A stretch of DNA of 64,000 nt from an uncultured Alphaproteobacteria bacterium (GTDB taxonomy: Bacteria > Pseudomonadota > Alphaproteobacteria > Rs-D84), in assembly GCA_944389265.1 (NCBI GenBank), contig CALXLS010000005.1, forward strand, positions 22,076 through 86,075, written 5' to 3'. Below, one piece after another: positions 618-26,199 of the stretch (positions are counted from its first letter, which is position 1; each line of letters begins with the position of its first letter). The notes under the pieces were generated by a model that saw only the letters and a program-made list of their open reading frames with translations, was not told the origin of the DNA and ran no database searches. The position numbers were made by a program, and so were the translations under genes.

Positions 618-1961
618 TTATTCGTTTCTTTTTTGTAGTTCTTCTAAGTAGATTTTTTCTTGGGATCCCAAAAAATTTTTAATATTTTCGTCTATATAAA
701 GATTATTGATTCCAAGCTTTTCTACTAAACATATATCTTTTACTTTATTAGTTCTACTTAATGCGACATACATTTGACCATGATACATTAACCCTGATGG
801 GTTTATTGTGACTTTAGATAAAGTTTGCCCCTGAGATTTGTTTACGGTTAGTGCATAAGCAAGTTTAAGAGGAATTTGTTTGTATAATGCATTAGGCGCG
901 GATTCTGTGACAAGGTTCCCATCTTTTTCTGTTATATCATAGCGTTCCCATTTAACAGGTTCGACTATATATATACCTCCTTTTGTTTTTACTTTAACAA
1001 ATTTCCCTTTCGGGCCTTGACCGAAACCTACCACCGTTCCCATAGTACCATTTTTCCAAGCACCACCACCAACATCGTTTTGAGTAAAAACAACTTTTGC
1101 ATTTATTTTTAGTTCCAAGAACATCGGTGAAGGATATTCTTCGGATTCTTGAGTGTTTTTTTTATTGGCAATTCGCCAGCCACAGTCAGTACCTATAAAA
1201 ACTTCTTTTTCTCCAGGTAAACTGCTTAAGCCTTGTTCATTTTTTTCGTCCACGATACTTCTTGTGCCAGCTATAAATATACCTTCTTTTTCATCTCCAT
1301 TTTTATAACAATTTTCATTAAAATAATCTACGGTTTCTTCTAAATCGAATTGGTATCTAATATGATTCAAATGAGTCCAGAAACTTCGTGCTTCTTTATC
1401 TCCTTTTTCGTCAAATTGTTGTCTATGTGGCATAAGTAATTCAACAAATTGAAATTTACCTTTTTTATATGCATTTGAATTGAAGAATAACGGCCATCTA
1501 TTTTTCCCGAATTCATCACCGTATCGCCTTTTTATATCATTGATTATATCATCTAATTTATCGTTATCGTTATAAAAAGACAAAACTTGATAAACATCAC
1601 CCGTTAACAAAACTTTGACGCCTCCGAACGGTTTCCAAGGAGTCTTCTTCGCCTTTTTTAATAAAGCGTCTATCGCGTCTAATATATCTGGTCTGACGTT
1701 CGATATTTCATCTATGATTAATAACTCGACACTTTTTAATTTTGAGGAAACAGGTATGCTTTCTAGATCTTTTTCTGTGATATATGGTGATGGAACCAAT
1801 TTAAAAAATGAGTGTATGGTGACACCTTTTACATTTAAAGCCGCCAATGCAGTAAATGCAACAACAACCGTGTTTGGGTGATTTCGTTCTATTGCCTCGA
1901 TTAAATAAGATTTCCCGGTTCCGGCTGCACCTTGTAAAAATAAATTTGTTTTTCCGGACAT
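618..1961 (-). CDS. Pif1/RecD-family (SF1B) DNA helicase
   Basis: Walker [10 protein letters not shown] near the N-terminus, Walker B LLIIDEIS, and C-terminal TVNKSQGQT motif typical of Pif1/RecD helicases. Length is 447 aa. Confidence 0.7.
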
Positions 1962-1968
1962 AACTTTA

Positions 1969-2616
1969 TCAAAAACATCCTTTTGAAAAAAAGTCTAGAT
2001 AAAATGGTTCGTTTGGGTTCTGTGGGTTGGGGACTTCATATATCAAGTCTTTTTTTTCTTTTATCAAATTAAGAACGGTTTTAAAAGTTTGTTCACCGTC
2101 AAACTCATTTTCTGTCTCGAATATATGGGCGGTTTGTTTTTTCTCTATGATGCCGTTCACCAAATCAAATTGATCACATACACTATCTAACGCCTCAAAA
2201 AAAGAATCTTTATCTAAATCTTCTATTTTCCACGCTTGTTTTACTAAATTACCTTCATATGAAGATTTAGATTTTGATGCCGATTGAATCCCCCATTTTT
2301 TTAAAAAGAACCCCATATTTTTAAAAGATACACCGTAACAAACCTCCAGCCATTGTTGGCCATTGAAATCTTTGTATAAATACACCGCAGGATACATTCC
2401 GTTTTTTAAAGTATTTTCGAAAGAGTCTACAGATTTTATAAAAGTAATATATGCTGTTTTTGGTGTGTTCTTATAGGGTTTCAGATTAAATACTAAATCA
2501 AAATCCCTGTACGTAGAACCTTCCCATATAGAAGAATTTACATTTCGACAAAAATTTCCTATAAAAAAACGCAAAAATAACCATAGTTGATCTTTATTCA
2601 TATTTTTACCTTGCAT
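1969..2616 (-). CDS. hypothetical protein co-transcribed upstream of Pif1-like helicase
   Basis: 215-aa ORF with 7-bp gap to the helicase start on the same strand. No recognisable motifs. Confidence 0.5.
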
Positions 2617-2980
2617 TTTTGAACATAAATAACGTGTGCTTAAATTGTCTCATACCCAATTGTTTTTTGCAACAATTAAAACGATAATTAGGTCGCGTCC
2701 AAATTTGGGGTATAGGTAGATTATAAATTAAGTGGATATATAACCAATACAAGAAAGGTAACTTTTCTTAAATATGATTTACTTTTTTTTATGTGTTTGG
2801 TATATATCTATTGTGGTTATATGAAGAAGGGTGACAACCATCTATAACTACTTAAATTTGTATAAGTGGTGCAGCTTTATCTGCATTGGGGTGCATACAG
2901 CCCAAGCTGATTGCCGTATTGACTCGTCATCAATCATAAAGGGTACGTTAAGCCCCTGCGCTATTTAAAAGGAGATTTTT

Positions 2981-3697
2981 ATGCCGAAAAAATATACTCG
3001 TCAGGAAACCCTAAACATTTTAGAGACAATGAAAAAAGAAGGTAAGGGATTTTCTTCTTTGTATAAAAAGGGTTTTATCAATTGGTCTGGTAAATCCATG
3101 GATAGAAGCAATTCAGAATACTATTCAGAAATTATATCAGATTGGTTATTAAATAATATGGATATATTAACTGGTAATCATATAAAGCAAGTAAACAGGG
3201 AGAATTATAAAGAATTTCATCCAGAACTAGATGAAAATACGCCGGCAACCAATCGTGAAGAAGAAAGAATCGCAAAAGAAATACATAAAGAAAAGGTTTA
3301 TAAAGAACTTGGTGAAGTTTTTGATTATCAGGTGCCTTTAAAAAAGACGAACAAAGATACTGGCGTAGGTAAGATAGACCTGGTTGCATTCAATAAAAAT
3401 GAAAACAATGTGTATTTGTTAGAGTTAAAAAGACGTGATAATTCTGAAACTTTATTGCGCTGCGTTTTGGAAATATATACATATTGGAAGCAACTTAATA
3501 AGGATAACTTTAAAAAGAGTTTCGACTTCCTACCATTAGATGCAAATATAATTCCTGCGGTATTAATTTTTAAAGATAGTGTACAATATAAGCAATATGA
3601 ATCAGAACATCCAAAGACAAGAAAACTTATGAAAGTATTAGGAATACAAACATTTGTTGTGACACAAGCAAAGTACACAATAGTTAAAGAGGATTAA
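2981..3697 (+). CDS. PD-(D/E)XK nuclease-like protein
   Basis: Motif GKIDLVAF-x10-VYLLELKRRD is a D...(D/E)xK signature. SD aaaaggag lies upstream. First gene of a 5-gene operon. Confidence 0.55.
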   Translation: MPKKYTRQETLNILETMKKEGKGFSSLYKKGFINWSGKSMDRSNSEYYSEIISDWLLNNMDILTGNHIKQVNRENYKEFHPELDENTPATNREEERIAKEIHKEKVYKELGEVFDYQVPLKKTNKDTGVGKIDLVAFNKNENNVYLLELKRRDNSETLLRCVLEIYTYWKQLNKDNFKKSFDFLPLDANIIPAVLIFKDSVQYKQYESEHPKTRKLMKVLGIQTFVVTQAKYTIVKED

Positions 3698-3698
3698 T

Positions 3699-3995
3699 AT
3701 GCGTATAAACAAGATAATTGTTGATAATATGGGCAATGTTTTTGCGCCTGTTGGTCGTGTTTCTGGCGGCTATGTGTATGACGACAGGGAAAGACTTATC
3801 GGAAGATATGTTGACGACAGGGTTGAATCTGTGAACAGACATATAATAGGTTTTGCCGCAGGTGGGGCGATTATGAACCCCGCAGGAAAGCAAGTTGCAA
3901 GATTAAATAATCGTTCTGAAATAGAAAGCAGCAAAACATTACGACCAGGGGAATATGCAGCAGTTTATAATTTTTTCTTCAAGGAGATAAAATAA
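3699..3995 (+). CDS. small protein with YD-like beta-hairpin repeats (GGYVYDDRERLIGRYVDD)
   Basis: 98-aa ORF, start 1 nt after the previous stop. Its repeat motif is shared with ORF 8515-8700. Confidence 0.45.
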   Translation: MRINKIIVDNMGNVFAPVGRVSGGYVYDDRERLIGRYVDDRVESVNRHIIGFAAGGAIMNPAGKQVARLNNRSEIESSKTLRPGEYAAVYNFFFKEIK

Positions 3996-4237
3996 TGGGG
4001 CGCAAAGTAAAATTACCAAATGGTGGCACCGTAGAGTGTGAAAGTTATCTTGGACCGACAGTTCATTGTTGTGCAACATGTCGTTTTTGGAATGGGTGTA
4101 GAATAATAGAAACCAACGGCAGTCATGTACTAGGTGTAGGGTTTGATAAAAGACAAAATCTTGGTGCATGTGGTGCAAAAAACAATGCCAGGGTTCCTGC
4201 GCGTTCGTCTTGTCCAAAATGGGTTGGTTTAAGGTAA
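3995..4237 (+). CDS. small Cys-rich protein (7 Cys, CCATCRFWNGC)
   Basis: 80-aa ORF. ATG overlaps the upstream stop (ataATGg), indicating translational coupling. Confidence 0.4.
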   Translation: MGRKVKLPNGGTVECESYLGPTVHCCATCRFWNGCRIIETNGSHVLGVGFDKRQNLGACGAKNNARVPARSSCPKWVGLR

Positions 4238-4250
4238 ATCAGGTGCGGCA

Positions 4251-5498
4251 ATGAAAATCTGTATATATCGTGGAACAAATGAAATCGGTGGAAACTGTGT
4301 AGAAATTGCAACAGACGCAACTCGTGTTTTATTCGATTTTGGGTTGCCTTTATCTTCGATGGAAGAAGAAGGGAAAAGTCTAACTGATTATAAAGTAAAT
4401 TGTTCGGGTATATATGCAGATGAAGAACCTTCTGTAAATGCTATTTTTATAACGCATAATCATCCAGACCATTACGGAATGCTTCCTTTAATTAATCCCA
4501 AAATTCCTGTATACATGTCGAAAACTTTACATGAAATACTGATAAAAATACAACCTTTGTTGCCAGGAAATTTTGATATATCGCATTTGGATATTCGTGA
4601 TGTTGATTCAGGCGAAAGTATAAAAATAGGGGATTTAACTATAACTGTACATCCAGTAGACCATGCACCAGCTGCGTGTGCTTATGAAATTTCTGACGGA
4701 AAGAAAAGAGTATTGTATACGGGAGATATCAGGTTTCATTCAAATCAAAGTTGGAAGTCATGGAAATTGGCGGACAAGGTCAAGAAGCCAGACTATCTGA
4801 TTATGGAAGGTACGCGCTTATCACGTACTGAGGCAAAAGAAAAATACCCGACCGAAGACGCAGTGTATAAACATCTGGTGCAAATTTTGCGTAATTCTGG
4901 GAAAGCAATATTTATAAGTTTGTCTTCTCAAAATTTAGACAGGTTGGTTTCTATGATTAAAGCATGCTTAGCAACTGGAAGGATTTTTGTAATTGACCCA
5001 TATACAGCGGCATTATTTGATATATTTCATGAATTGTCAGAAAGGGTGCCAACAGTAGAAATGGTTGATTGTGTAAAAATTTATTACGGTGGAAATCAAA
5101 AGATAGCAGAAAAAATGATTGCCAAAGGAATATTTAAGACACATAGCGCAAAAAAAATAACGATTGAAGAAATTGCAGAGTCCCCAGAAAAATATGTTAT
5201 AAAATATAATCGAACATTGATAAATTTGTTATTAAAGAACCAGATTAAAGATTACGATTTTATTTATTCTATGTGGCACGGTTATTTAGAAAGGAAGAAG
5301 ATTTGGGAACCATATAAAGAGCATTTAATAGAGGTACACACATCAGGTCATGCACAAGTTTCTGATTTGCAAGAATTTGTTAAGAAGATTTCTCCTGCCA
5401 AGATAATACCCATTCATACAGAATGTAAAGATAGTTATGCAGATGTTTTTTCTGCACCGATATTAAGTTTAAATGATAATGAACCAACAGAGGTATAA
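4251..5498 (+). CDS. metallo-beta-lactamase fold beta-CASP hydrolase, RNase J-like but lacking the RNase J C-terminal domain
   Basis: N-terminal EIGGNCVEI...VLFDFGLP...ITHNHPDHYG (HxHxDH) matches the RNase J pattern. C-terminal HTSGHAQ...IIPIHTE is beta-CASP motif C. Length 415 aa. Confidence 0.65.
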   Translation: MKICIYRGTNEIGGNCVEIATDATRVLFDFGLPLSSMEEEGKSLTDYKVNCSGIYADEEPSVNAIFITHNHPDHYGMLPLINPKIPVYMSKTLHEILIKIQPLLPGNFDISHLDIRDVDSGESIKIGDLTITVHPVDHAPAACAYEISDGKKRVLYTGDIRFHSNQSWKSWKLADKVKKPDYLIMEGTRLSRTEAKEKYPTEDAVYKHLVQILRNSGKAIFISLSSQNLDRLVSMIKACLATGRIFVIDPYTAALFDIFHELSERVPTVEMVDCVKIYYGGNQKIAEKMIAKGIFKTHSAKKITIEEIAESPEKYVIKYNRTLINLLLKNQIKDYDFIYSMWHGYLERKKIWEPYKEHLIEVHTSGHAQVSDLQEFVKKISPAKIIPIHTECKDSYADVFSAPILSLNDNEPTEV

Positions 5499-5500
5499 AG

Positions 5501-6907
5501 ATGAAAAAAGAAAAGACTAATCCAAGACTGCGTACAGGCGAATTTTCAAAAATAATAAAAAAGGGCAATCTGCAAGAAGTAAAAGATTTTATCGCAAATA
5601 GGGATTGTCTGGATATATTGGCACTAGATGAATATGGGCGAGATTCTTTATATGATGCAATTTTTACAGGAAATTTAGATATAGTAAAAGAGTTAATCGA
5701 CTATGGTTTGGACCCGAGTTTAGTTGATACTTCTACGGGAGTTGGTGCGTTGCATCTTGCTTCATCCGAAGGTCATTATAATATAGTGGAACATTTAATA
5801 AAAGTACATGGACTAAAAGTTAATCAGTTGGATAAAAAATATCGTTCTCCGCTGTACTATGCTTTATTGTTTATGGTTGAAAAAGGAAAAAATGGTAGAA
5901 TATATGTAAATCAAGAGAATCTAAAAATAGCAAAATTCTTGGTTGTCAACGGTGTAAAATTCCAAAAGAACCTACATACATTTCCTGTCGAAATGGGCGT
6001 TTTAGAAGAAGAATTAGTTCGTTATTTTCATCGTGGTAAAATTGAAGAAAATGCTAGGTGGAATTGTATCAACTTTTTAAAAGAAGATATAGCGGCTTAT
6101 GCTAGCGGAGAATATAAATATATAGAAGGATTTAAAAAAAATATATATAAGACACCAGAATTTCAAGATAAAAAGAATGTTTTGCCAATAGCACTTGGGT
6201 GGAAAATTAAAGAATGGGATTATAAAGCAGTTCGAGATAAATTTAATAAAGGCGAGCCAGAATTATTAAAAAAATCAGAAATTAGACCAATTGTTGCAGA
6301 TTTAGCAAAAATATCACCGCTTTTAATAAATTTAGGAGATACAGTAGAAGAAGAATATATGATTATGGATAATATATTTAATTCTATTATGCCAAAATAC
6401 GATGAAGATGCTTGCCAAGTGGTGTTTATAGACCCAATAGATAGGTGCTTTTTGCCAGTTTATAAAAGAGACGGCAGATTTCTGATGAATTCTGTTGACG
6501 ATATGAATACAGCAGTAGGCGCAATAAAAGCGCTTGTCGCGGAATCAGAATTTCGTGAAGGGTTATCCGAACAAAAATTGGCAGACAAAGCACCAATGGT
6601 TTGTGTAATAAATGATTTAACAGATATTATTGAATACGATAATAGCATAGAAGCAGATATGCAATATTTGATGATGCACGGGCAACACACAAAAATATAT
6701 TTAATTGTGCTTGTTAGGGACGGTACAAAAAAAGGTTTGTCTTCTTTATTGAAAGCGAATTTTTTGGCAAATATGCTATTTCATGCAAAAGCAACCAAAG
6801 AGCATAGAAATAATTTTAGAACAAGTTGTATGGAAAAACTTGGAAAGGGCGAGGCGCTTATCACCGTTTATTCGGAAATAGGATTAGGATATATAAAAAT
6901 CAAATAG
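5501..6907 (+). CDS. ankyrin-repeat protein with ~300-aa C-terminal domain of unknown function
   Basis: At least three ANK repeats at residues ~40-140 (GRDSLYDAIFTGNLDIVKELIDYG, GALHLASSEGHYNIVEHLI). Start is 2 nt after the previous stop. Confidence 0.6.
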   Translation: MKKEKTNPRLRTGEFSKIIKKGNLQEVKDFIANRDCLDILALDEYGRDSLYDAIFTGNLDIVKELIDYGLDPSLVDTSTGVGALHLASSEGHYNIVEHLIKVHGLKVNQLDKKYRSPLYYALLFMVEKGKNGRIYVNQENLKIAKFLVVNGVKFQKNLHTFPVEMGVLEEELVRYFHRGKIEENARWNCINFLKEDIAAYASGEYKYIEGFKKNIYKTPEFQDKKNVLPIALGWKIKEWDYKAVRDKFNKGEPELLKKSEIRPIVADLAKISPLLINLGDTVEEEYMIMDNIFNSIMPKYDEDACQVVFIDPIDRCFLPVYKRDGRFLMNSVDDMNTAVGAIKALVAESEFREGLSEQKLADKAPMVCVINDLTDIIEYDNSIEADMQYLMMHGQHTKIYLIVLVRDGTKKGLSSLLKANFLANMLFHAKATKEHRNNFRTSCMEKLGKGEALITVYSEIGLGYIKIK

Positions 6908-6909
6908 TA

Positions 6910-6942
6910 AAAATGTCGGATTTTTTATTCCGACATTTTTTG
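6910..6942. terminator. bidirectional rho-independent terminator
   Basis: Stem aatgtcgga/tccgacatt with T-rich loop, followed by T-run. Lies between convergent gene ends. Confidence 0.6.
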
Positions 6943-7245
6943 TTATATTTTATATCCAAATGCATTTAATTTATCACGCGCGATTTTCTTTTCGGTTTCG
7001 GTAAAAAGATCAGAGAATGCTTCTTCTAGAATAATATTTTCTATTGTTAAATCTAAACGTTTTAAAGACCATAGTTTATTAAAACCGGTAGATATGTTCT
7101 TGTTGTTTATAAGTGATTTACAGGTTGCTATTGCACCCTGGGTGTTTAACATTTGTGTCAAGTATGTCGGATTATATCCGATTTCTTTGGAATCAAATAT
7201 CATTTTTTGAATGCGTTGCATCAATTGTTCTTCTGTTGCTTTCAT
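6943..7245 (-). CDS. hypothetical 100-aa protein
   Basis: ORF only, convergent to the ankyrin-protein gene. No motif recognised. Confidence 0.35.
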   Translation of the reverse strand: MKATEEQLMQRIQKMIFDSKEIGYNPTYLTQMLNTQGAIATCKSLINNKNISTGFNKLWSLKRLDLTIENIILEEAFSDLFTETEKKIARDKLNAFGYKI

Positions 7246-7430
7246 ATCGTATTCCTCTAAACGTCAGATTTATATCATAAATAAAAAGTACGTAGTGTAA
7301 AGAATTTTCTGAAATAAAAATTTATAACAAGACCAAAAATGTCGTATTGGTTTAATAACATGAAAAAGTGAAATATTGCCAAAAAATTTAATATATGGTA
7401 AATTAACTATAAATAAGGGGTTAATACATC

Positions 7431-8408
7431 ATGCGGGATAATTATAATCGATTATATGAATTATACGATTTTATCAATGAATTACGCAGTCGTACTTTTT
7501 CTGGTATGTCATACGAAGAAATAATGGTTCATTTTGGGTGGTCCAGAAAGACCACTGAAAGAATGCTGAATGTTCTAAAAACGCTTTTTGGTGACGGGTT
7601 AACATATGATTATATTGATGATGGCAGCCGCAGAAAATCTTATAAATTGGTTATAAAAGACCTTAATAAATTACCTTTAAATTTTATATCCGAAGAAGAT
7701 TTGATAAATTTAAAAACTGCAGCAAAGATTTTAACAAATGATTCAAATGTATCTGGTGGGTTATCTCGGCTTGCGTCTAAATTAGGTACAATAAATTTAA
7801 AAACGGAAAATAATGCAGAAGATGTTGCAGGGGCGACAAGTGCAGTTGCTATACCAGGTCCAAGGTTGAATATCGATAATGGTATTATCGGTGCTTTACA
7901 AGAATCTGTCCAGAGTTTTAAGCAGGCAGAAATTGAATATAATGGTAGAAAGCGCGTTGTGTGTCCATTAGGGTTTTTATATGGTATAAGAAATAATTAT
8001 TTAATCGCGGCCAATAAAAGATACATTTCTAGTCCGGTAAAGTATAAATTGTGTGATATAACGTCCGTAAAAGTTTTAGACAACTTTTTTGATGCGGAAG
8101 GTTTTGATATACATAAATATTCTATAAGGTCTTTCGGAGTTTATTCTGGGAAAGAAGACGGTTATGATATAGAATGGCTTGTAAAGAAAGAAGCAGCGCA
8201 GGATGCTAAAAAATATATATTTCATTCTACACAACAAATGATTGAAAACGAAGATGGTACTTTAACGATAAAATTTCATGCGGATGGCTTAAGAGAAATG
8301 GCATGGCATTTGTTTACTTGGGGTGGAATGATTGTGCCCATAGCACCTGCAGAACTGGTTACAGAATATAAAAATTATATAAAATTAGCGCAAGAATCAT
8401 TAAAATAA
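7431..8408 (+). CDS. WYL-domain transcriptional regulator (BrxR/CapW-like, wHTH-WYL-WCX)
   Basis: N-terminal wHTH (SYEEIMVHFGWSRKTTERMLNVL). Central WYL-like core (YLIAANKRYISSPVKYKLCDITSVKVL). 325 aa is typical for this family. SD aaggggt upstream. Confidence 0.6.
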   Translation: MRDNYNRLYELYDFINELRSRTFSGMSYEEIMVHFGWSRKTTERMLNVLKTLFGDGLTYDYIDDGSRRKSYKLVIKDLNKLPLNFISEEDLINLKTAAKILTNDSNVSGGLSRLASKLGTINLKTENNAEDVAGATSAVAIPGPRLNIDNGIIGALQESVQSFKQAEIEYNGRKRVVCPLGFLYGIRNNYLIAANKRYISSPVKYKLCDITSVKVLDNFFDAEGFDIHKYSIRSFGVYSGKEDGYDIEWLVKKEAAQDAKKYIFHSTQQMIENEDGTLTIKFHADGLREMAWHLFTWGGMIVPIAPAELVTEYKNYIKLAQESLK

Positions 8409-8423
8409 GCATCAGAAAAATAA

Positions 8424-8452
8424 AAAGCACCTGTTTTTACAGGTGCTTTTTT
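8424..8452 (+). terminator. rho-independent terminator after WYL regulator gene
   Basis: agcacctg-tttttac-caggtgct hairpin followed by TTTTTT. Confidence 0.65.
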
Positions 8453-8514
8453 GTACGTCCAAAACTGTCGCATATACTACCTAGATTATGATTGTAGATA
8501 AAAAGGAGACTTAA

Positions 8515-8700
8515 ATGGCGATTTCTACGGCAGTACAAAGGGGTAGTTGGGTTTACGTATATAATGAAAAAGGAGCATATCTTACAAGCCTAAGCGGTCA
8601 GTTGTATGGTTTTACTTCTTCAACTGTATCGGTAAAGCGAAACAATTGGGTTTATGTTTATGACGAACACGGAGGTTATGTTTCTTCTTTTTCTTGTTAA
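8515..8700 (+). CDS. 61-aa protein made of two WVYVY(D/N)E-G-Y repeats
   Basis: Good SD aaaaggag 8 nt upstream. Internal duplication RGSWVYVYNEKGAYLTS / NNWVYVYDEHGGYVSS. Confidence 0.45.
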   Translation: MAISTAVQRGSWVYVYNEKGAYLTSLSGQLYGFTSSTVSVKRNNWVYVYDEHGGYVSSFSC

Positions 8701-8724
8701 TTTATAAAAACTAAGGGCGCGCAC

Positions 8725-9009
8725 ATGAAACTAGATTTTGAAAAATATTTATCGGATGTAAAACTTAATAAAAAACGTAATTTCTCAAAGAGAAGCATAG
8801 AATCATATTCTAGGAATGTTCCAGAGTATTTAAGAGATAAGTTTAGTGTCAATCTTTATAGCATTTCAGAGCCAAAAGAAGCACAAGACTTGTTAGATAG
8901 ATTGAATAAGAACTCGAATTTTTTAAGGGATGACACAGTTGGTAAGCATATGTATTCGTGTGGAATAAAACGATACATCGAGTTTTTAACGTGGTTGCAA
9001 ATGCAGTAA
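8725..9009 (+). CDS. hypothetical 94-aa protein
   Basis: ORF in operon position between the repeat protein and the AAA+ gene. No confident motif. Confidence 0.4.
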   Translation: MKLDFEKYLSDVKLNKKRNFSKRSIESYSRNVPEYLRDKFSVNLYSISEPKEAQDLLDRLNKNSNFLRDDTVGKHMYSCGIKRYIEFLTWLQMQ

Positions 9010-9056
9010 TAGAAAAACATTATCGCACGAAAAACTTGTAAAACCGGGAGATATAT

Positions 9057-11051
9057 ATGAAGCAACAAGATGTCATATTATTTTATTTAAACAACATATC
9101 CAAAAGAGAAATAACAAAACGATCGGCATCAGAAATACTAGAGTTTGCCGAGCAAGAATCTGAATTTTTATGGGGACATCCTTTTGATGACATGTGGTTT
9201 CCTAGTAATGAACGGGAAGCCAAAACAAAAGATTTAAAAATCTTGCGTTCGATATTAAAAAATACAGAAATCAAAGATATTTATCTGCCTGGTCAAGATA
9301 AGGTTATTGATTTGATATTAGAAGCATTTTCATTAGAAGAAAAATATCGTCCAATATTAACGCTTGTTGTTCATATGATAAGATATGTCAAACTTCGTCG
9401 TCTTGTGGGCGAGGTTTCTGGCAGTCGCAGACCTGTGTTGAACACAAATTATATGGAATATATTTCTAAGTTTTGTGGAGTTCGTGAAAGTGAGCTAAAT
9501 AAAACATTGGATTGTAATTCGGCATTATTGCGTTGCGGAATAATTAATGTTGATTTAGATGGGGACTTAGATTTGTCCAATGTCGTGCAAAAAGTTCTTA
9601 GTGCAGGGAATATTAAAAATAAGAACGATGTAAAAAAATATATATTACGCGAATCCAGGAAAACGAAACTTACCGCAAAAGATTTTTCTCATATCCAAGA
9701 TGAATTTTCTTATATAGGAAAAATCTTATCGAGTGCCACAAATAATAAGGTACCAGGTATAAACATTTTAATATATGGTGACATTGGAACAGGTAAAACA
9801 GAATTTTCTAGGGCATTAGCCAAAAGTTTAGGTTTAACTTTATATGAAATGGGAGGTGAGCCTGGTAAACAGAGAAGGGAGTCCAGTCTACAAGACCTAT
9901 GTGTTGCGCAATCTTTATTGATGAAAGATAGAAGTTCTTTATTGCTTATGGATGAAGCAGAGGATGCATTAACAAAATCGGGACCATTTGATAATAGTTC
10001 TTCTAAATTATCAATTAATCGTACGCTAGAATTAAATCCAGTTCCTGTGATATGGATTGTAAACAGTATATCTGGGATAGACAAATGTTATCTGCGCAGA
10101 TTTACATATTGTTTAGAATTTCATAAACCAGAAACAGAGCAACGAAAAAAAATATGGAAAAGAGTTTGCGCAAAACACTCTGTTTGCATATCAAAAGAAG
10201 AAATATCCGAACTTGCTAATAAATATGATGTTGCACCAAGTATAATTAATGCAGCGATTTTAAATAAGTCATTGTCTGGGCAAGAAGATGCAGTCAGCAG
10301 AACAATAAAATCACTTAGTGCAGTAATTTCTGGTGATGTAAAAGCAGACAAAAAATCTGAAGAATTAAATGATTTTAATTCTCAGATATTGAATACGGAT
10401 ACAGATTTAATTTTGCTTGCTGAAAAGTTATCAAAAGGCATAGAAAAGAATTTTTCTTTATGTCTTTATGGTGTTGCGGGAACGGGTAAGTCTTTATATG
10501 CCAGATATTTAGCAGAAAAGTTAGGTATGAAAGTTATACAAAAACGAGCCAGCGATTTAAGCAGTAAATATATCGGTGAAACGGAAAAGAATATAGCGAA
10601 CGCCTTTCGCGAAGCAAAGACGGAAAATGCCATATTAGTTTTCGATGAAGCGGATAGTTTTTTAGGTTCGCGTGAAAATGCAAACAAGCCTTATGAAATA
10701 TCGTCAGTCAATGAAATGTTAACTCATATGGAAAGTGCAGAAACGCCATTTATTTGTACAACAAATTTGATGACGAATATAGATAAAGCAGCGTTGCGAA
10801 GATTTACATTTAAAGTAAAATATGATTACCTAACAACGCGGCAAGTCAAACTGGCATATCGACATTTCTTTGGTGCAGATATATCAGCAGGCAGCGCAGA
10901 AAATCTGTTATATTTAACACCAGGTGATTTTTCTGTGGTACGAAAAAAGTCGAAAATATTGGGTATTACTGACAGTACAGAAATAATAAAGATGTTGAAA
11001 GATGAAATGGCTGCCAAGGGTAAAATTATAAAACCTAAAATAGGCTTTTAG
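9057..11051 (+). CDS. tandem AAA+ ATPase (two classical AAA modules) with ~230-aa N-terminal domain
   Basis: Module 1 has Walker A GDIGTGKT, Walker B LLLMDEAED, and second region of homology ending CYLRRF. Module 2 has Walker A GVAGTGKS, Walker B ILVFDEADS, and TTNLMTNIDKAALRRF. Confidence 0.7.
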   Translation: MKQQDVILFYLNNISKREITKRSASEILEFAEQESEFLWGHPFDDMWFPSNEREAKTKDLKILRSILKNTEIKDIYLPGQDKVIDLILEAFSLEEKYRPILTLVVHMIRYVKLRRLVGEVSGSRRPVLNTNYMEYISKFCGVRESELNKTLDCNSALLRCGIINVDLDGDLDLSNVVQKVLSAGNIKNKNDVKKYILRESRKTKLTAKDFSHIQDEFSYIGKILSSATNNKVPGINILIYGDIGTGKTEFSRALAKSLGLTLYEMGGEPGKQRRESSLQDLCVAQSLLMKDRSSLLLMDEAEDALTKSGPFDNSSSKLSINRTLELNPVPVIWIVNSISGIDKCYLRRFTYCLEFHKPETEQRKKIWKRVCAKHSVCISKEEISELANKYDVAPSIINAAILNKSLSGQEDAVSRTIKSLSAVISGDVKADKKSEELNDFNSQILNTDTDLILLAEKLSKGIEKNFSLCLYGVAGTGKSLYARYLAEKLGMKVIQKRASDLSSKYIGETEKNIANAFREAKTENAILVFDEADSFLGSRENANKPYEISSVNEMLTHMESAETPFICTTNLMTNIDKAALRRFTFKVKYDYLTTRQVKLAYRHFFGADISAGSAENLLYLTPGDFSVVRKKSKILGITDSTEIIKMLKDEMAAKGKIIKPKIGF

Positions 11052-13965: not shown

Positions 13966-13997
13966 ATTTAAACGCCCCTTTTGGGGGCGTTTTTTTT
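13966..13997. terminator. GC hairpin terminator downstream of giant gene
   Basis: aaacgcccctttt gggggcgttt followed by an 8-T run. Confidence 0.5.
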
Positions 13998-16900
13998 ACC
14001 ACATTGTGTATCCTTCTTTACATGTACGGACGCACTTCTTTTTCGCTTGATCCCAAACCATTGTACCAGTTTCGTCTTCGTATTCTTCTTGAGGACAGAT
14101 AGGTACACATTCGTTGTTATCTAGGTTATAAAGTTCTCCTTGATACAAGCATGCGGCAATTTCACAACCTTGAACATAACTGCTTGCAGCTAATTGTCCA
14201 AGAACACTGTATTTATTTTTGCACTCGCCGCATTGTTTTGTGCGTTCATTTGTTTCTGATGGATCATTTGTATATCCTGGGTCACAAGATGTTGCGATAC
14301 ATTTACCCCAGTTCTTGGACGCATGATTCCATTCTTTGAACCCTATACCGTTCTCAACTGTGCAAGGTTGAATATCCGATACGCATGCGTTAGAAGCCAA
14401 ATGATATTCAGATTCACACTCTTTTATCATGCAAGGTCCGAACGCATTCAGGTTATAATCCCACTTTTGTTCAGCATATATTGCATTAGGAGCAGAGCAT
14501 TCTGTTATATCTTTTTCACATGCTCTTCCGTTTGGATGATAACCCAGTACGCATGTTGCTACCTGGCAAACACCTGTTTCCTTATAAGATAGAGCAAACT
14601 CTACATCACAAGGTTCGCACTTGCCGTTAATCATTTCATAGCCCCCGTTGCAAGATATTTCTACGCAAACATCGTCTACGATTTCGCAAGGGTTACCTGT
14701 ATCAGATACACCTTTAAATTCGCATTCATTAGGATAGAAGGCTTTATCATTTACAGGTACAGCCGTACCATTTTCTACCTTATATTCTTCGCACTTTTGA
14801 TAGCATCCACTTTCATCTTTTGCACCTGGCAGCGAGAATTCCCAAGAACCGTCACCTAGGTCTGCGCAAGATTTAACATCGCTACCTGGTTCATCTGGAT
14901 CTGTTTCACCGTCACAGAAACTTCCTTCTGGGCATTCTGTGCAGATTCCGTTCTCTAATGTATATCCTGCCAAGCATCTTGCAATTTTACATGTGTCAGG
15001 TGCTTGATAATAGTCACGACCAGACATTGCCGCAGCATTTTCTGCTATTGCACAATCTTTATAGCACATTGCTACATCTGTTGTGCCTGCGTCTGATTCT
15101 GGGTATTGACCACCAGTTAAAGAAGAACATGTTTTTTGTTCGCCTTCTTCGCAGACGCTTCCTGCAGGGCAATTGATGCAAGTATTGTCTACCTGAGAGT
15201 ACCCTTCATCGCAAGATACGACAGTACATGTTTGACAGCTTGCTGTATAATCAGAATCTGACTCATTGTAATGACATGTTTTCTCACCAGAACCGTTTGC
15301 AATTGGGCAAACGATATCTTCTCTGAAACATTCTGTTATTGCAGAACTTGTTTTTGTTGCTGTTATACCGTTCTGAGGGCACTGGAATCTGGATGTGTTA
15401 ACCGCAGGGCTATAATATCCGATACCAGCTTCTATACAGTCATCTACCTTTTTAATCTTGTCATAGTAGTAGCCTGCATCGCAACTTGTCATGGTTGGTG
15501 TTTCACAACTTGATGCATAGATTGCAGATGTGCCTTCACCACTTGTATAGTAGCATAGATATTCGCCAGTACCATGTAATGCTTCTGTATATGGCAGACC
15601 GTCTTTATAGCACAGACTGATACTATCTGCGATATCACTTTCTGTCTTACCGTTATTTGGGCATTCATGACGTTCTATATCGTCTGGGTCGCTATAGAAA
15701 TTCTGAGTGACCGGTGAACAGTCTGTATCAGAACTTTCTTCTAGCCAGTATCCACCACGACAACTATTTATAACTTTAGTATCGCAATCGCGTTGGTATA
15801 TAGCATCTGCACCAGTACCACTAGAGTAGAAACATCTCTGAGTACCTGTTCCATAAATTGCCGTGTAAGGTAAGTTTTCTTTATAGCAATTCTGAACCAT
15901 TGTAGAAGTATCTGTTTCTGTTAACCCGCTGCTTGGGCACTGTGTACGGCTTGTACCTGAACCGTCACTGTAGTATCCCTTGCCGACGACTTCACAGTCA
16001 GGTGTTTCTGCACCTGCGTCTGCTAGGTAATAACCTGCGTCACAGATGTTTATGACTTTATCAGTACACTGTGCAGAATAATCACTTGATGTCTGATTAT
16101 ATTGACATGTCTGAGTACCACTACCATGAGTCGCTGTATAAGGCAACTTAGTCTTATAGCACTTTGTCACAGAATCAGTACCACTAGGTGATGAACCTTG
16201 TTCTGGACAAACGTTCATACCTTCTGCGTGACCGCTATCTGTTGCGAACGAACCACCAGGGCAGTAATTATTTGCTGGACATTGTGTGCACTGAGTACCA
16301 GTTCCTGGATAATATGTACCTGGTTGGCATGTTGTTTTACCTGCCGCCCATCTTACATATATTGTTGCAGGTGACTTTGTTGTCATAGTTAACGCTTCTT
16401 CTGAGGTCTGGAATTCACCGTTTGCATTAATAATCTGTGTTCCGCCAGTTGAAGCAGAGTAGTATCCTGCCAGTTCGTAACTAGATTTGGTTGGCAACTT
16501 AGTCATTTTTGATATAGATGTTGTTGCACCAGAGTTGCTAAACCAACCTGTTGCATATTTCAGATAAACTGTGCTTGGTTCACCTGGAACATCCGAACCT
16601 GTATTATCTAAGTTTACAGTATAAACATTAGGTGTCCATACTGCATACAATGTTGTGTCAACACCTGTCGCAGATATATTAGTTGCTATAGATGTACCCG
16701 CATCATAGCATGGTGAACCACCATTTTTATCGGAACACCATTTTGCGACAACTGTATATCCGGCACGTGTCAAACCAGTTGTTGCAGGTAATTGACAACT
16801 GCCACTATTAAATGTGCATTTTACACTTGCAGCGACAGAACCTGCACCACCATTCTTATCCAGAGTAATTGTATACTCATTTGCTTTACATGATGGTTTT

Positions 16901-19900
16901 TCTGTATTGTTGGATTGTACTGTATAACCCGTTTCACAAGTCACAGCGAATGAGCATGCCGCATATGCGCTTGCGCTTATACCATAAACAGTATTTTCTT
17001 TCGCTGCAATAGAAGTAGAATTCGGTATTTCTATTTTACATTCTTTATAGCAGTCTGTGAAATTATCTGCGTATTCAGAAGATTCTACTTTTGAACCATT
17101 TGGGTCTACAGGACACGCAGTTTGGTCTGTGTCGTTTTCTGGGCTGTAATATCCGCTTGTAACGCCACTGCACAAGAATGCATTTGGTGTACTGTACCAA
17201 TAACCAGCCTTACAACTTTTTACTTCCAGTATGCTGCATCTTTCATATTTTTTGCTGCCTTCTATATAGAAGCACTTTGCTGATGCCACACCATTTTGGA
17301 AGCCTGAATAAGGGTCAAATACCTTATAGCATTCTGTTACATAAGTTGCACCACGTTCAGAAGTACCACCGTCTGGGCAGGTAATAGGACCAGAACCATC
17401 TTCTGGACAGTAAGAACCTGCTGGACACTCATTTGGATCGCCCCATACACAAGACGGATTTGTACTTGGGCTGTTTTCAGGAACATAATTTTCGTTACAT
17501 TCAGCACGATATTGACATTCTGGATACTTAGAACCGTCGTAATACTGATTTCCTGTTGACACGCCTTGACCGTTTTCAATGTCTAATGTTGGTGGGCATG
17601 TTTTATAACAGTCAGTAATATCACCAGAACCTGCTTCAGAAGTACCGCCTGCTGGGCATTCGTGTTCAATACCTTCTTCACAGTAAGAGCCTTCTGGACA
17701 TTCTTCTGGTTCTGTCTCTTCAGAGCCACCAGGGCAGTTAACACCGTCTTGGCACTTATTACATGTTGCATTTGCAGTACCGTTACCAGATGCAACATAT
17801 CCAGGATTACAATTTACATTATATGTACATGCTGGGTATGAAGAACCGTTATAGTAAACTTTTGCACTTACAACAGTTGCTGTACCGCCTGTAATGGTTT
17901 TGCCACCACAAGTTTTATAGCATCCTGTAGCCGCTGTTGAACCTGTGTCAGAACCATTATATCCAGATGGACACGTTGTTGAGCATCCTGCTTGCCCGAT
18001 ATTTGCAAAACCTGTACCTGGGCAGAAAGAACCAGAAGGGCAATCTACATGACTTGTGCCATTATAATATTTCCCTGCTTGACATTGTGTCGTCTGTTGT
18101 GACCAACAAGCATACATAGTTTTTGCAGATGTGAATGTTGTCTGGTATACGCCACTTGTGCAGCCAGAAGATTCACCCCAACCAGTAAATGAATAGCCTG
18201 TTTTTGTTAGACCGCTTGAAGGCAAATCACACAAAACGCCATGCTTGCACTTTTGTGTTGCATTTGCAGTACCAGACGAACCATTTATAGAGCCTGTACC
18301 ACCATTTTTGTTAAGGGTTATGGTATATTCGTCAGGTTCACAACTTCTTCCATCTGTTGATAGATGATAGCCTGGGTTACATTCAAATGTTTCACCACCA
18401 CCAGGGCATGTCGCATTAGGTACGCACGCAGCACATCCACTACCAGAGATGTAGTAGTCTTCTTTACATTGTGTCGCTGCACAAGTTTTTGTTCCACCTT
18501 TTGTTACTGTACCTGTAACTGCGGATGCATTTGGAACATCACTTGTCGTACAATCTCTATAGCAGATGCTATTTGTCTGAGATTTACATACATCATAAGT
18601 ACCTTTTGTAAATCCTGATACACTGCTACAAGAAACACTACAGTTTGAACATCCTGAACCATTTGGGTATTGTGTTGCACTACATCCGCAAGTGCCGGCA
18701 CCATCAGTATTCATGGAACATGCTGTCCATTGTGCAGTAAATGTAATATCTTTTGTATAAGTCCAAGTTATTTGTCCAGGTTGTTTAATTGTGGAGCCAT
18801 CATTCCAACCAGCAAAAGTATAACCTGGTTTTGAACATGTGTTAGATGCAATTACATAAGAACCACCATATTGCTGTGATGTACCACCTGGTGCATTACC
18901 GCTGCCAGTACCGCAAGAGTATGATACTTCATAAGTGTTTGGAATACATGTATCACCACTCTTCTGATAACCTGTTTCGCAAGTAAAGGTCATAGAGCAG
19001 GTAGGTGCAGTTGCACTACATGTTGTCGTTACCTGGTTCATAGTACCACTTGCTGTTTCTGAACCGAAATTACATGTTGCGGAATGTTCTGGGCAAGTAG
19101 GCTTCTTACAAGCAACTGTACAAGATTTGGTACATTGTGTTGCCGATGTTGCGCCTGCTGGTGACGAATATCCTGATTCACAAGCAGGGCAGGTTATACC
19201 ACTACTATAGTGATTAGCAGAAGCGGTCACCCCAGTAATAGGTTTATTACAATTATTAGGTGTACAATCTGACACAATAGTACCACTATATTTCTTTGTG
19301 TACGTACAACTACCAGGAGAACAAGTTCCTGTTGTTATACTGCTGCACCCAGAAGGAGTGGCTGGCGGTTGCTGTGTACCAGTTTTAGTAAATTCACCAA
19401 CGCATTCATTTATAGAACTAGCACCAGTTCCGTCACGATAACCTGATGGACATTGAGGGCAAGCAGCTCCATTTACGTAATATCCAGAATTTGCGGTTAC
19501 ACTTTTTATAGTTTGTTGGCAAGATGCATTATTTGTACTACATCCACTTTTTATAGTGCCGTCACCGGTTCCAGCAGAGTTAGAATATGCAACATATTCA
19601 CATGATGGATTTGAACACGTATTACACTGTACTGACGCGCAGTTAGATGGTTTTGTGCAAGAAGTTTGACTGCCTGTCCATGCACGTTGCTTTGTATTAC
19701 TATAACAGTCAGTTATTGCATCAGAACTAGTTGCAGAATTTGGATAACTACTTGGACAAGTGTTTATGCCTTGGTCACTTGAACTTGGGGTAAAAGTTCC
19801 ACCTTTACAGTAAGAACCAGCGGGACATGCTGTACATGATGTTGCGTTCGCTTTTAAATATGTTCCCGCAGAACATGTCACAGATGCTAGAACACATGTT

Positions 19901-20208
19901 TCACCGGAAACGACTTCATAGTCGTCCTGAGCGTGCCAGTACCCATCGGGACATCTACATGCCAGAGAAGTATTGTTTGCAGATGTTGTTGATTGCCAAC
20001 CACTGCCACTAGGACATTGTACACAGGCGTTCCCTACGTCTGTTCCGTTTAGGTAATAATTGGCATTACACGACGTGTATTTCTTTAAACTAGGACATGT
20101 ATATCCCGCAGCAAACGCATTGCCGACAAAAAATACCATGAATAAAGATGCCAAAAAACCAAGGAAATTGTGTCTTTTTCCCATATCTTCCCCTCTTTTG
20201 TATATCAT
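13996..20208 (-). CDS. giant secreted cysteine-rich repeat surface protein (ephrin-receptor-like/furin-like Cys modules plus Listeria-Bacteroides-type repeats)
   Basis: 2070-aa ORF. N-terminal signal/TM FLGFLASLFMVFFVGNAFA. Dozens of C-x2-C-P-x-G-x-Y-C modules. At least four ~75-aa repeats of the form YT(I/V)xL(D/N)KNGG...GY(T/S)FxGW...(L/M)YAxW. Confidence 0.8.
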   Translation of the reverse strand: MIYKRGEDMGKRHNFLGFLASLFMVFFVGNAFAAGYTCPSLKKYTSCNANYYLNGTDVGNACVQCPSGSGWQSTTSANNTSLACRCPDGYWHAQDDYEVVSGETCVLASVTCSAGTYLKANATSCTACPAGSYCKGGTFTPSSSDQGINTCPSSYPNSATSSDAITDCYSNTKQRAWTGSQTSCTKPSNCASVQCNTCSNPSCEYVAYSNSAGTGDGTIKSGCSTNNASCQQTIKSVTANSGYYVNGAACPQCPSGYRDGTGASSINECVGEFTKTGTQQPPATPSGCSSITTGTCSPGSCTYTKKYSGTIVSDCTPNNCNKPITGVTASANHYSSGITCPACESGYSSPAGATSATQCTKSCTVACKKPTCPEHSATCNFGSETASGTMNQVTTTCSATAPTCSMTFTCETGYQKSGDTCIPNTYEVSYSCGTGSGNAPGGTSQQYGGSYVIASNTCSKPGYTFAGWNDGSTIKQPGQITWTYTKDITFTAQWTACSMNTDGAGTCGCSATQYPNGSGCSNCSVSCSSVSGFTKGTYDVCKSQTNSICYRDCTTSDVPNASAVTGTVTKGGTKTCAATQCKEDYYISGSGCAACVPNATCPGGGETFECNPGYHLSTDGRSCEPDEYTITLNKNGGTGSINGSSGTANATQKCKHGVLCDLPSSGLTKTGYSFTGWGESSGCTSGVYQTTFTSAKTMYACWSQQTTQCQAGKYYNGTSHVDCPSGSFCPGTGFANIGQAGCSTTCPSGYNGSDTGSTAATGCYKTCGGKTITGGTATVVSAKVYYNGSSYPACTYNVNCNPGYVASGNGTANATCNKCQDGVNCPGGSEETEPEECPEGSYCEEGIEHECPAGGTSEAGSGDITDCYKTCPPTLDIENGQGVSTGNQYYDGSKYPECQYRAECNENYVPENSPSTNPSCVWGDPNECPAGSYCPEDGSGPITCPDGGTSERGATYVTECYKVFDPYSGFQNGVASAKCFYIEGSKKYERCSILEVKSCKAGYWYSTPNAFLCSGVTSGYYSPENDTDQTACPVDPNGSKVESSEYADNFTDCYKECKIEIPNSTSIAAKENTVYGISASAYAACSFAVTCETGYTVQSNNTEKPSCKANEYTITLDKNGGAGSVAASVKCTFNSGSCQLPATTGLTRAGYTVVAKWCSDKNGGSPCYDAGTSIATNISATGVDTTLYAVWTPNVYTVNLDNTGSDVPGEPSTVYLKYATGWFSNSGATTSISKMTKLPTKSSYELAGYYSASTGGTQIINANGEFQTSEEALTMTTKSPATIYVRWAAGKTTCQPGTYYPGTGTQCTQCPANNYCPGGSFATDSGHAEGMNVCPEQGSSPSGTDSVTKCYKTKLPYTATHGSGTQTCQYNQTSSDYSAQCTDKVINICDAGYYLADAGAETPDCEVVGKGYYSDGSGTSRTQCPSSGLTETDTSTMVQNCYKENLPYTAIYGTGTQRCFYSSGTGADAIYQRDCDTKVINSCRGGYWLEESSDTDCSPVTQNFYSDPDDIERHECPNNGKTESDIADSISLCYKDGLPYTEALHGTGEYLCYYTSGEGTSAIYASSCETPTMTSCDAGYYYDKIKKVDDCIEAGIGYYSPAVNTSRFQCPQNGITATKTSSAITECFREDIVCPIANGSGEKTCHYNESDSDYTASCQTCTVVSCDEGYSQVDNTCINCPAGSVCEEGEQKTCSSLTGGQYPESDAGTTDVAMCYKDCAIAENAAAMSGRDYYQAPDTCKIARCLAGYTLENGICTECPEGSFCDGETDPDEPGSDVKSCADLGDGSWEFSLPGAKDESGCYQKCEEYKVENGTAVPVNDKAFYPNECEFKGVSDTGNPCEIVDDVCVEISCNGGYEMINGKCEPCDVEFALSYKETGVCQVATCVLGYHPNGRACEKDITECSAPNAIYAEQKWDYNLNAFGPCMIKECESEYHLASNACVSDIQPCTVENGIGFKEWNHASKNWGKCIATSCDPGYTNDPSETNERTKQCGECKNKYSVLGQLAASSYVQGCEIAACLYQGELYNLDNNECVPICPQEEYEDETGTMVWDQAKKKCVRTCKEGYTMW

Positions 20209-25834: not shown

Positions 25835-26165
25835 AAAAGCTGGGTTTCTGTTGCCGGGCACCCAGCAGCCCCGCAATAGGCTAAAGTGGATATAATTAAC
25901 AATTGCCAACTATATCCTGTGCCGTATTAGGCAGCCATTGCAAGGCGAACATTGTCGTTCGCAGCGATTCTATCGCCATTCAGTTTTTAGTTGGTCTTTT
26001 ACGACACCACGTCGGATTCAGCCAGTTTGCCTTTACTGCGCCTGTCGAAACTATGTCAGCCCCGTATGTATTATTGGTGGAGCTGTGGGGTACCGCCCCC
26101 CAGTCCAAAACGACTATTCCGCAACGGTTTCAGAATCATCATCGCTTATGCGACAGGAATTATTA
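25835..26165 (-). ncRNA. ssrA: tmRNA (ssrA), circularly permuted two-piece form
   Basis: Minus-strand RNA contains GGACUGGGGGGCGGUACCCCACAGCUCCACCA (T-arm, 3' acceptor strand, CCA). After 11 nt comes GGGGCUGACAUAGUUUCGACAGG, which is the tmRNA 5' acceptor strand. The tag ORF GCU GCG AAC GAC AAU GUU CGC CUU GCA AUG GCU GCC UAA encodes AANDNVRLAMAA-stop. 3' terminator hairpin at 25839-25866. Confidence 0.75.
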
Positions 26166-26199
26166 TATAATATTTACGGTGGAAATTGCAAGTTTTTAA

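Follow-up and report, generated by a model that had tools for sequence, protein, structure and literature searches.

Which system does a WYL-type transcription regulator control when the genes behind it match nothing that has a name? The question arises at positions 7431 to 11051 of a 64,000-nucleotide window of DNA from an uncultured alphaproteobacterium (the window being the whole stretch analysed), where a regulator gene is followed by genes for a 61-aa protein, a 94-aa protein and a tandem AAA+ ATPase of 664 amino acids (aa). An earlier note on this DNA had rightly flagged an undescribed WYL-regulated module here; we revise below the subfamily it gave to the regulator, whether regulation is probably positive or negative, where the promoter lies and which genes form the conserved unit. 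The conserved unit is the regulator together with the 664-aa ATPase, not the three-gene cassette. By its sequence, the regulator is of the DriD type and does not belong to the BrxR/CapW subfamily. We regard it as fairly probable that the locus is a DriD-type module that responds to single-stranded DNA (ssDNA) and drives an operon, with a protein unfoldase as the output that is conserved.

The four open reading frames (ORFs) all lie on the + strand. Their positions and sizes and the motifs quoted for them in the earlier note are real, as judged from the ORF list and the translations, and so is the terminator, whose stem we map slightly differently:

7431–8408 (+): DriD-family transcription regulator of 325 aa, with a winged helix-turn-helix (wHTH), a three-helix linker, WYL and WCX; assigned from the DriD structures, the family profile and the WCX and WYL models
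8422–8451 (no strand assigned): intrinsic terminator hairpin with a 13-bp stem and A and T runs at its flanks, closing the regulator transcript; kept in the related locus L006
8515–8700 (+): 61-aa protein with YD/RHS-like β-hairpin repeats, from an uncharacterised family
8725–9009 (+): 94-aa lineage-specific protein
9057–11051 (+): 664-aa tandem AAA+ ATPase

That these are genuine genes is shown by their homologues: over 1400 database relatives for the ATPase, 97 for the 61-aa protein, and relatives that keep the 94-aa ORF at 85–99% identity. An operon of the three genes behind the regulator is plausible, because the gaps between them are 24 and 47 nt and no terminator-like site lies between them on the + strand.

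The regulator, its operator and its promoters

The regulator has the wHTH–WYL–WCX architecture that had been read from it, and this part of the BrxR/CapW-type assignment stands. Its N-terminal region aligns to the wHTH of DriD; it matches Pfam WCX above the cut-off (4.7e-8), Pfam WYL below the cut-off (0.0099) and the PADLOC WYL model at 9e-17. Among solved structures, its sole significant relatives are chains of Caulobacter DriD (9pfq, 8tp8, 9cu3, 7tzv, 7u02), with an alignment at 8e-30 over aa 20–309, and the single sequence matches no BrxR or CapW structure at an E of 1 or below. We also scored a family profile, made from the window regulator and 33 regulators adjoining ATPase homologues, against solved structures. 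It aligns to DriD in one continuous full-length stretch (5–331 against 4–324) with an E of 4.9e-86 and reaches 1e-10 with PafBC, whereas the matches to BrxR (7qfz, 9e-4; 7t8k, 0.4) and CapW (7tb5, 0.5) cover the WYL core only. The BrxR/CapW subfamily thus gives way to DriD. BrxR and CapW repressors share with the window regulator the order of domains, a dimeric palindromic operator, a site beside the controlled genes and probably an ssDNA signal, but their sequence similarity to it is insignificant or marginal and no known defence system lies downstream of it. The segment joining wHTH to WYL consists of a helix plus β-hairpin in BrxR/CapW and of a bundle of three helices in DriD (PMC10853764).

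DriD of Caulobacter crescentus (PDB 8TP8, 7TZV, 9PFQ), to which the window regulator is homologous over its full length, is a WYL activator of an SOS-independent DNA-damage response. This homodimeric activator binds ssDNA between WYL and WCX and then binds ATACGAC-N7-GTCGTAT (PMC9186387, PMC10853764, PMC13004042). Three of its ssDNA-contacting residues (Tyr168, Arg178 and Tyr192; residues from PMC9186387) align with identical residues in the window regulator, Trp206 is replaced by Tyr, and the position of Ser172 falls in a loop deleted from the regulator.

The published DriD operator has the core CGNC-N7-GNCG within the full consensus given above, with ATACGTCCGTTTCTGGCGCA as the didA box (PMC9186387, PMC13004042). 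Sites of this type stand in front of both the cassette and the regulator gene:

8453–8473 (+): DriD-type operator GTACGTC-CAAAACT-GTCGCAT (GTACGTCCAAAACTGTCGCAT) of the cassette promoter, directly after the terminator; supported by pattern, position weight matrix (PWM) and conservation
8482–8487 (+): candidate −10 element TAGATT, 8 nt 3′ of the box, with no −35 consensus; supported by the TAnnnT register across loci
8503–8508: putative ribosome-binding site AAGGAG, followed by the ATG at 8515
7327–7347 (+): DriD-type box ACAAGAC-N7-GTCGTAT upstream of the regulator gene, with 2/14 mismatches to ATACGAC-N7-GTCGTAT
7356–7361 (+): candidate −10 element TAACAT for the regulator gene, 8 nt past the box, a spacing found in about 40 related promoters

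The box of the cassette promoter has zero mismatches to the didA-derived pattern TACGTCC-N4-CTGNCGCA, is the sole such site in the 64 kb, and agrees with the didA box at all non-spacer positions except two. A PWM trained solely on loci other than the window (29 sites) ranks it as the top match in the window at 23.6 bits, against 18.2 bits for the best of the 50 shuffles that served as the null. Its core is kept in L006, where the ATPase is 81% identical, and in L003, where it is 48% identical, while the flanking intergenic DNA has diverged. The ATG comes 42 nt after the box, matching the oligonucleotide used for the Caulobacter didA promoter. The second-best PWM match is the box upstream of the regulator gene (17.1 bits), which taken alone is inside the null range. 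It and the third-best match (7327–7361 and 2693–2727 with their −10 elements) are both intergenic, on the + strand and within the same island as the cassette. The regulator box also lies 82 nt upstream of a divergent 100-aa ORF at 6943–7245 (−), which has no family match; its −10 spacing fits the + strand only, towards the regulator.

Promoter geometry was compared by aligning about 40 box-bearing promoters from related loci on the box. Most have a −10-like hexamer (TAnnnT or a close variant) at +9 to +14 past the 21-mer; the strict form TAnnnT occurs in 14 of the 29 PWM training sites, with TATACT, TATAAT, TACAAT and TAGATT as examples. Two other −10 candidates, TATGAT (8487–8492) and TAGATA, were dropped because the cross-locus alignment sets this register. 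The box then spans −41 to −21, and the −35 position coincides with box positions 7–12 in the AT-rich spacer, which is never TTGACA-like. DriD sites are likewise reported to cover the −35 position at a constant distance from the −10, and a DriD promoter has been ‘optimised’ by placing TTGACA in place of box positions 7–12 (CCGTTT) (PMC13004042). The register of the window promoter equals that of this ‘optimized −35’ construct. The promoter proposed earlier, TTGTAC-16-TATACT, is unlisted by our scan, is not conserved in L003 and overlaps a stretch that makes better sense as a DriD operator; the geometry kept across loci places the −10 at TAGATT.

In operator consensus, AT-rich spacer, placing of the operator relative to the −10 and lack of a −35, the window regulator resembles DriD. 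It also has a candidate box in its own promoter region, as is reported for 68 of 69 alphaproteobacterial DriD homologues (PMC10853764). By this analogy it is more likely that the regulator activates the cassette promoter than that it represses it, since a good −10 without a −35 would need an activator. The repression assumed in the earlier note is disfavoured on the same grounds, the operator sequence and a box at −41 to −21 without a −35 being those of DriD-activated promoters.

A tandem ATPase linked to the regulator in many phyla

Homologues of the ATPase were located by a genome scan that gave 80 loci in Alphaproteobacteria, Melainabacteria, Elusimicrobia, Planctomycetes, Latescibacterota, Deltaproteobacteria, Binatia, Gemmatimonadota and others. 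When neighbouring genes were clustered over 86 loci, the WYL gene emerged as the only common partner (61/86). Linkage was counted in the 53 non-redundant loci that have at least 3 kb on both sides of the ATPase: a WYL gene lies within 3 kb in 30 and within 300 nt in 15, and the link is seen in Alphaproteobacteria, Melainabacteria, Planctomycetes, Latescibacterota, Deltaproteobacteria and others. The arrangement varies among the 30, with the WYL gene downstream on the same strand in 13, upstream and divergent in 10, upstream on the same strand in 6 and downstream on the opposite strand in 1. The co-occurrence of regulator and ATPase supposed in the earlier note is borne out by these counts; the neighbourhoods of its homologues also show the ATPase to be no housekeeping gene with constant neighbours. 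The three-gene cassette, by contrast, does not hold as a unit: the 94-aa gene is limited to near-identical genomes, the middle gene is swapped elsewhere, and the 61-aa gene occurs in 8 of 86 loci.

Box statistics over 82 non-redundant loci point to the same two genes. Counting sites with at most 3/14 mismatches to the strict Caulobacter consensus and no more than 150 nt upstream of a gene start, we find a box at 18 of 87 ATPase genes (21%; Fisher p 1.7e-10) and 15 of 55 WYL genes (27%; Fisher p 5e-11), compared with 19 of 860 other genes (2.2%), an enrichment of about 10-fold. ATPase boxes cluster 39–47 nt 5′ of the start codon. The box-bearing other genes include the recurrent neighbour families DnaB_C-like, MBL/β-CASP, DUF2779 and DUF1643.

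The pair of WYL and ATPase genes also occurs in 5 of 11 viral-contig loci and in Campylobacter magnus (L086), where it lies beside SIR2 and a relaxase. A search of the Campylobacter locus for a DriD-type box gave only a CGAC-N9-GTCT variant upstream of the ATPase (3581–3762), which may be a variant operator of a diverged regulator. Three loci from deltaproteobacterial metagenome-assembled genomes (L048, L066, L070) have two tandem-AAA ATPase genes head to tail behind a single WYL gene, and it is possible that the duplicated ATPases form a heteromeric ring. At L064, four DriD-type boxes (ATACGACAACAGCTGTTGTAT and variants) lie several kb away from the ATPase (14208–16678), between short genes that diverge, which suggests a larger local regulon.

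The known targets of Caulobacter DriD (didA, recA, recJ, dnaG, bapE and an operon of a small ORF and a TonB receptor) include no AAA+ ATPase, whereas the window regulator is wired to one, and this wiring is seen well beyond Alphaproteobacteria. The two regulators also differ in two ssDNA-contact residues. In our searches we found no paper that pairs a DriD-type regulator with this family of tandem AAA+ ATPases.

The ATPase matches Pfam AAA twice (4.2e-37), with the motif sets GDIGTGKT/LLLMDEAED/YLRRF and GVAGTGKS/ILVFDEADS/ALRRF, and has full-length homologues of 36–49% identity in many phyla. It divides into three parts:

9057–9740 (+): N-domain (aa 1–228), a helical bundle plus a winged-helix-like subdomain, family-specific (separate model, pLDDT 88)
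9741–10346 (+): AAA module D1, with conserved Walker A, Walker B, sensor-1 and Arg fingers and no canonical (aromatic) pore loop
10404–11051 (+): AAA module D2, a classical-clade motor with the pore loop KYIGE (Pfam AAA, alignment)

In D1, G241/G244/G246/K247, N336 and R347/R348 are invariant and D299/E300 are kept at 90% or more. In D2 all motifs are invariant (K478, D530/E531, G507/E510, N570, R581/R582). The N-domain is found essentially only in this family. An AlphaFold2 model of the monomer (pLDDT 84.5) has Rix7, NVL, Cdc48/p97, Afg2 and Pex1/6 as its top Foldseek matches at about 1e-17, and sequence matches to Cdc48/VCP reach about 1e-21. The type II classical AAA+ unfoldases Cdc48/p97, Rix7/NVL and Afg2 are the best matches both in structure and in sequence, and like the ATPase they have two stacked AAA modules, a D2 KYIGE pore loop and a double Arg finger. 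The protein models as a Rix7/Cdc48-like type II unfoldase.

Our preferred mechanism joins these parts. By analogy with DriD, ssDNA from DNA damage or from invading replicons would bind in the WYL/WCX pocket of the regulator. The ssDNA-bound regulator would then bind the 21-bp box, positioned at −41 to −21 in a promoter with a −10 and no −35, and recruit RNA polymerase to induce the operon of the 61-aa protein, the 94-aa protein and the ATPase; it probably acts on its own promoter too. The ATPase would be a hexameric double-ring unfoldase with D2 as the threading motor and an intact D1 that has no pore loop, and the helical and winged-helix N-domain would select the protein substrate. Our best guess is that the ATPase extracts or remodels DNA-bound proteins so that co-regulated nucleases and helicases can act. 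As to the biological role, a rough estimate makes repair nearly an even bet, action against phages or plasmids quite possible, and any other role doubtful.

Neighbouring genes and the small proteins

The earlier note had found no named defence system in the cassette, and our scans agree: no PADLOC v2 model covers the proteins downstream of the regulator, no recognised defence system lies immediately 3′, and PADLOC and NCBIfam searches with the four proteins gave only partial, single-domain matches to IetA, TRIP13 or DolB, none of them full-length. Among 148 flanking proteins sampled across the loci, the recurrent families are DnaB_C (6), DUF1643 (5), MBL (5), DUF2779 (4) and PDDEXK_4 (4). The flanks also contain housekeeping genes (L25, EF-Ts, NrdD) and scattered defence matches (PDC-S26, SoFic, AbiEii, Old and a retron reverse transcriptase), and representative neighbours include UvrD–PD-(D/E)XK fusions, an ADP-ribosylglycohydrolase and GmrSD. 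The neighbourhood fits a setting of nucleic-acid repair or conflict, not a clean defence island, and the evidence for immunity is weak. The surroundings had been read as full of nucleases and helicases, in keeping with an island; DNA-repair-like nucleases and helicases are indeed there, but they are mixed with scattered defence and housekeeping genes.

In the window, the island (618–11051) comprises a PIF1-like helicase, a PD-(D/E)XK-like protein, proteins of 98 and 80 aa, an MBL/β-CASP nuclease, an ankyrin protein, the regulator and the cassette. The helicase, of superfamily 1 (618–1961, −; Pfam PIF1 5e-22), adjoins a 215-aa gene at the left edge of the nuclease/helicase cluster, and the left boundary of the island lies outside the window. 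A third candidate DriD-type promoter at 2693–2727 (+) consists of TCGCGTCCAAATTTGGGGTAT, 8 nt and TATAAA; it is the third-best PWM match at 15.7 bits, and its counterpart in L006, ATACGTCCAAATTTGGGGTAT, is better. The site lies about 250 nt upstream of an operon at 2981–6907, which would give that operon a long leader. This operon encodes a 238-aa PD-(D/E)XK-like protein (read from motifs, with no Pfam support), the 98-aa β-flower-like protein, an 80-aa Cys-rich protein, the 415-aa MBL/β-CASP nuclease and the 468-aa ankyrin protein. A bidirectional hairpin at 6909–6940 is common to the ankyrin gene and the divergent 100-aa ORF.

The 61-aa protein contains two copies of WVYVY(N/D)E..G.Y. Its family has members of 60–70 aa with the consensus MAIGTAVQRGS-VYVYDEKG ... 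GYTGSTVSV-RG-IY-Y-EKG; it matches no Pfam family, and matches to RHS/YD repeats are weak. In two of three distant contexts its gene stands beside or near a WYL gene, in L086 with the tandem ATPase and in L088 with DUF2779. We take it for a true but occasional regulon member. The 98-aa protein (3699–3995, +) has a sub-threshold match to Pfam Bflower_2, the 5-fold β-flower (1.9e-6, 28 bits against a cut-off of 38), and a GGYVYDD hairpin that recalls the 61-aa protein. A relationship between the two was considered and set aside, the similarity not being significant (hhalign probability 2.4%).

Homologues of the 94-aa protein form two clusters of 99% and 85% identity. Comparison by BLAST with the middle genes of other loci gave nothing, and Pfam searches at E up to 1 gave nothing meaningful. 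Other loci have unrelated genes in its place, of 131 and 155 aa, as well as genes for HNH-type proteins.

To the right of the cassette, a 2070-aa Cys-rich repeat protein (13996–20208, −) has weak Flg_new matches in relatives and lies in a block of about 42% GC, where the surroundings have about 33%. Its synteny with the cassette extends to relatives whose ATPase is as little as 48% identical (L001, L003, L006). The window as a whole is AT-rich, at about 33% GC, its closest relatives being uncultured Alphaproteobacteria from gut and rumen. A two-piece (permuted) transfer-messenger RNA of the alphaproteobacterial type at 25836–26195 (−; Rfam RF01849, 151 bits) marks the host as an alphaproteobacterium.

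Alternative explanations and implications

Several observations weigh against a DriD-type module with an unfoldase as its output. A WYL gene is missing within 3 kb of the ATPase in 23 of the 53 loci, and under the strict Caulobacter consensus no more than roughly one in five to one in four ATPase and WYL promoters has a box. Taken singly, the window's second and third boxes score inside the null range of the PWM. Of the ssDNA contacts of DriD, Lys202 and Arg204 are not kept in the regulator, and no ATPase target has been reported for Caulobacter DriD. The box covers the −35 and spacer, from where a repressor could act too, so activation rests on analogy and the missing −35. The homology to DriD, the box with its conservation and enrichment, the promoter geometry, the gene linkage and the double-AAA architecture are observed; ssDNA sensing, activation, unfoldase activity and the substrate are inferred, as a DNA-damage phenotype would be.

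The most serious alternative, which we consider unlikely, is that a BrxR/CapW-like repressor guards a new antiphage system of the 61-aa protein, the 94-aa protein and the ATPase, and is relieved upon infection. The signal would then be the same, as CapW-type repressors are also reported to sense ssDNA (PMC11662680), and the domain architecture of the regulator and the overlap of the box with core promoter positions would suit a repressor. The profile scores (9e-4 to 0.5 for BrxR/CapW, 4.9e-86 for DriD) and promoters that have the geometry of activated DriD promoters, without a −35, argue against this reading. On the side of the ATPase, the D2 module resembles IetA/IteA, the ATPase of the IetAS antiphage system (PADLOC 2.5e-35, NCBIfam 4.3e-30). 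However, IetA is a single-AAA protein, the match is limited to aa 454–599, the NCBIfam IteA score of 105 bits is far below the curated cut-off of 510, and the window locus contains no gene for the IetS subtilase/protease; we do not count the locus as an IetAS system. The ATPase family is patchy across phyla, and some loci have GmrSD, a PDC-S26-like nuclease, SoFic, AbiEii, Old, a retron reverse transcriptase, SIR2, integrases or a relaxase as neighbours, which would be consistent with defence. Yet many neighbourhoods are housekeeping ones, the cassette is not conserved as a unit, no PADLOC model spans any of its proteins in full, and only 11 matches to the ATPase were found in 2.9 million viral contigs.

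A second possibility, to which we give still less credence, is that the ATPase is not an effector but a partner whose job is to reset or fine-tune DriD, such as by removing the ssDNA-bound protein from its promoters. Such a remodeller role would lead the pair, rather than any effector gene, to be conserved. Consistent linkage is confined to the ATPase and the WYL gene, both carry boxes, and they often form one operon with the ATPase first (13 of 30 loci); nuclease, protease and toxin domains are absent from the ATPase, and its N-domain contains a winged-helix-like unit. Against this stand two loci (L084, L059) with a box upstream of the ATPase and no WYL gene nearby, the fact that Caulobacter DriD functions without such an ATPase, and the lack of evidence for physical interaction between the two proteins. 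We strongly disfavour the idea that the ATPase is an ordinary AAA+ chaperone of proteostasis that sits beside the regulator by chance: it does fall in the classical AAA clade, and within the lineage the locus keeps its position beside a flavoprotein and the giant repeat protein, but the family is patchy across phyla, has no protease or co-chaperone partner and an essentially family-specific N-domain, and is strongly and recurrently linked to WYL genes and DriD boxes.

The DriD-type module with an unfoldase output, which we prefer, has a wider extension that we put forward tentatively. DriD sensors and a Cdc48-like ATPase may form an old, horizontally mobile two-gene module in many phyla, with the ATPase as the unfoldase effector of an SOS-independent response to DNA damage or invaders. 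If true, this would be a bacterial counterpart of p97-type protein extraction from damaged DNA, opening the way for co-regulated nucleases and helicases. Work on DriD has so far been centred on Caulobacter, with a handful of known targets. The present locus and its relatives suggest that DriD-type activators and their operator are used far outside Alphaproteobacteria, that their most consistently linked target among these loci is an uncharacterised family of AAA+ unfoldases, and that the same operator ties in MBL/β-CASP, DUF2779, PD-(D/E)XK and DnaB-C-like genes. With a defined operator, a promoter and a single conserved effector, the locus offers an entry point to the role of an unfoldase in a response triggered by ssDNA, be it repair, defence or both.

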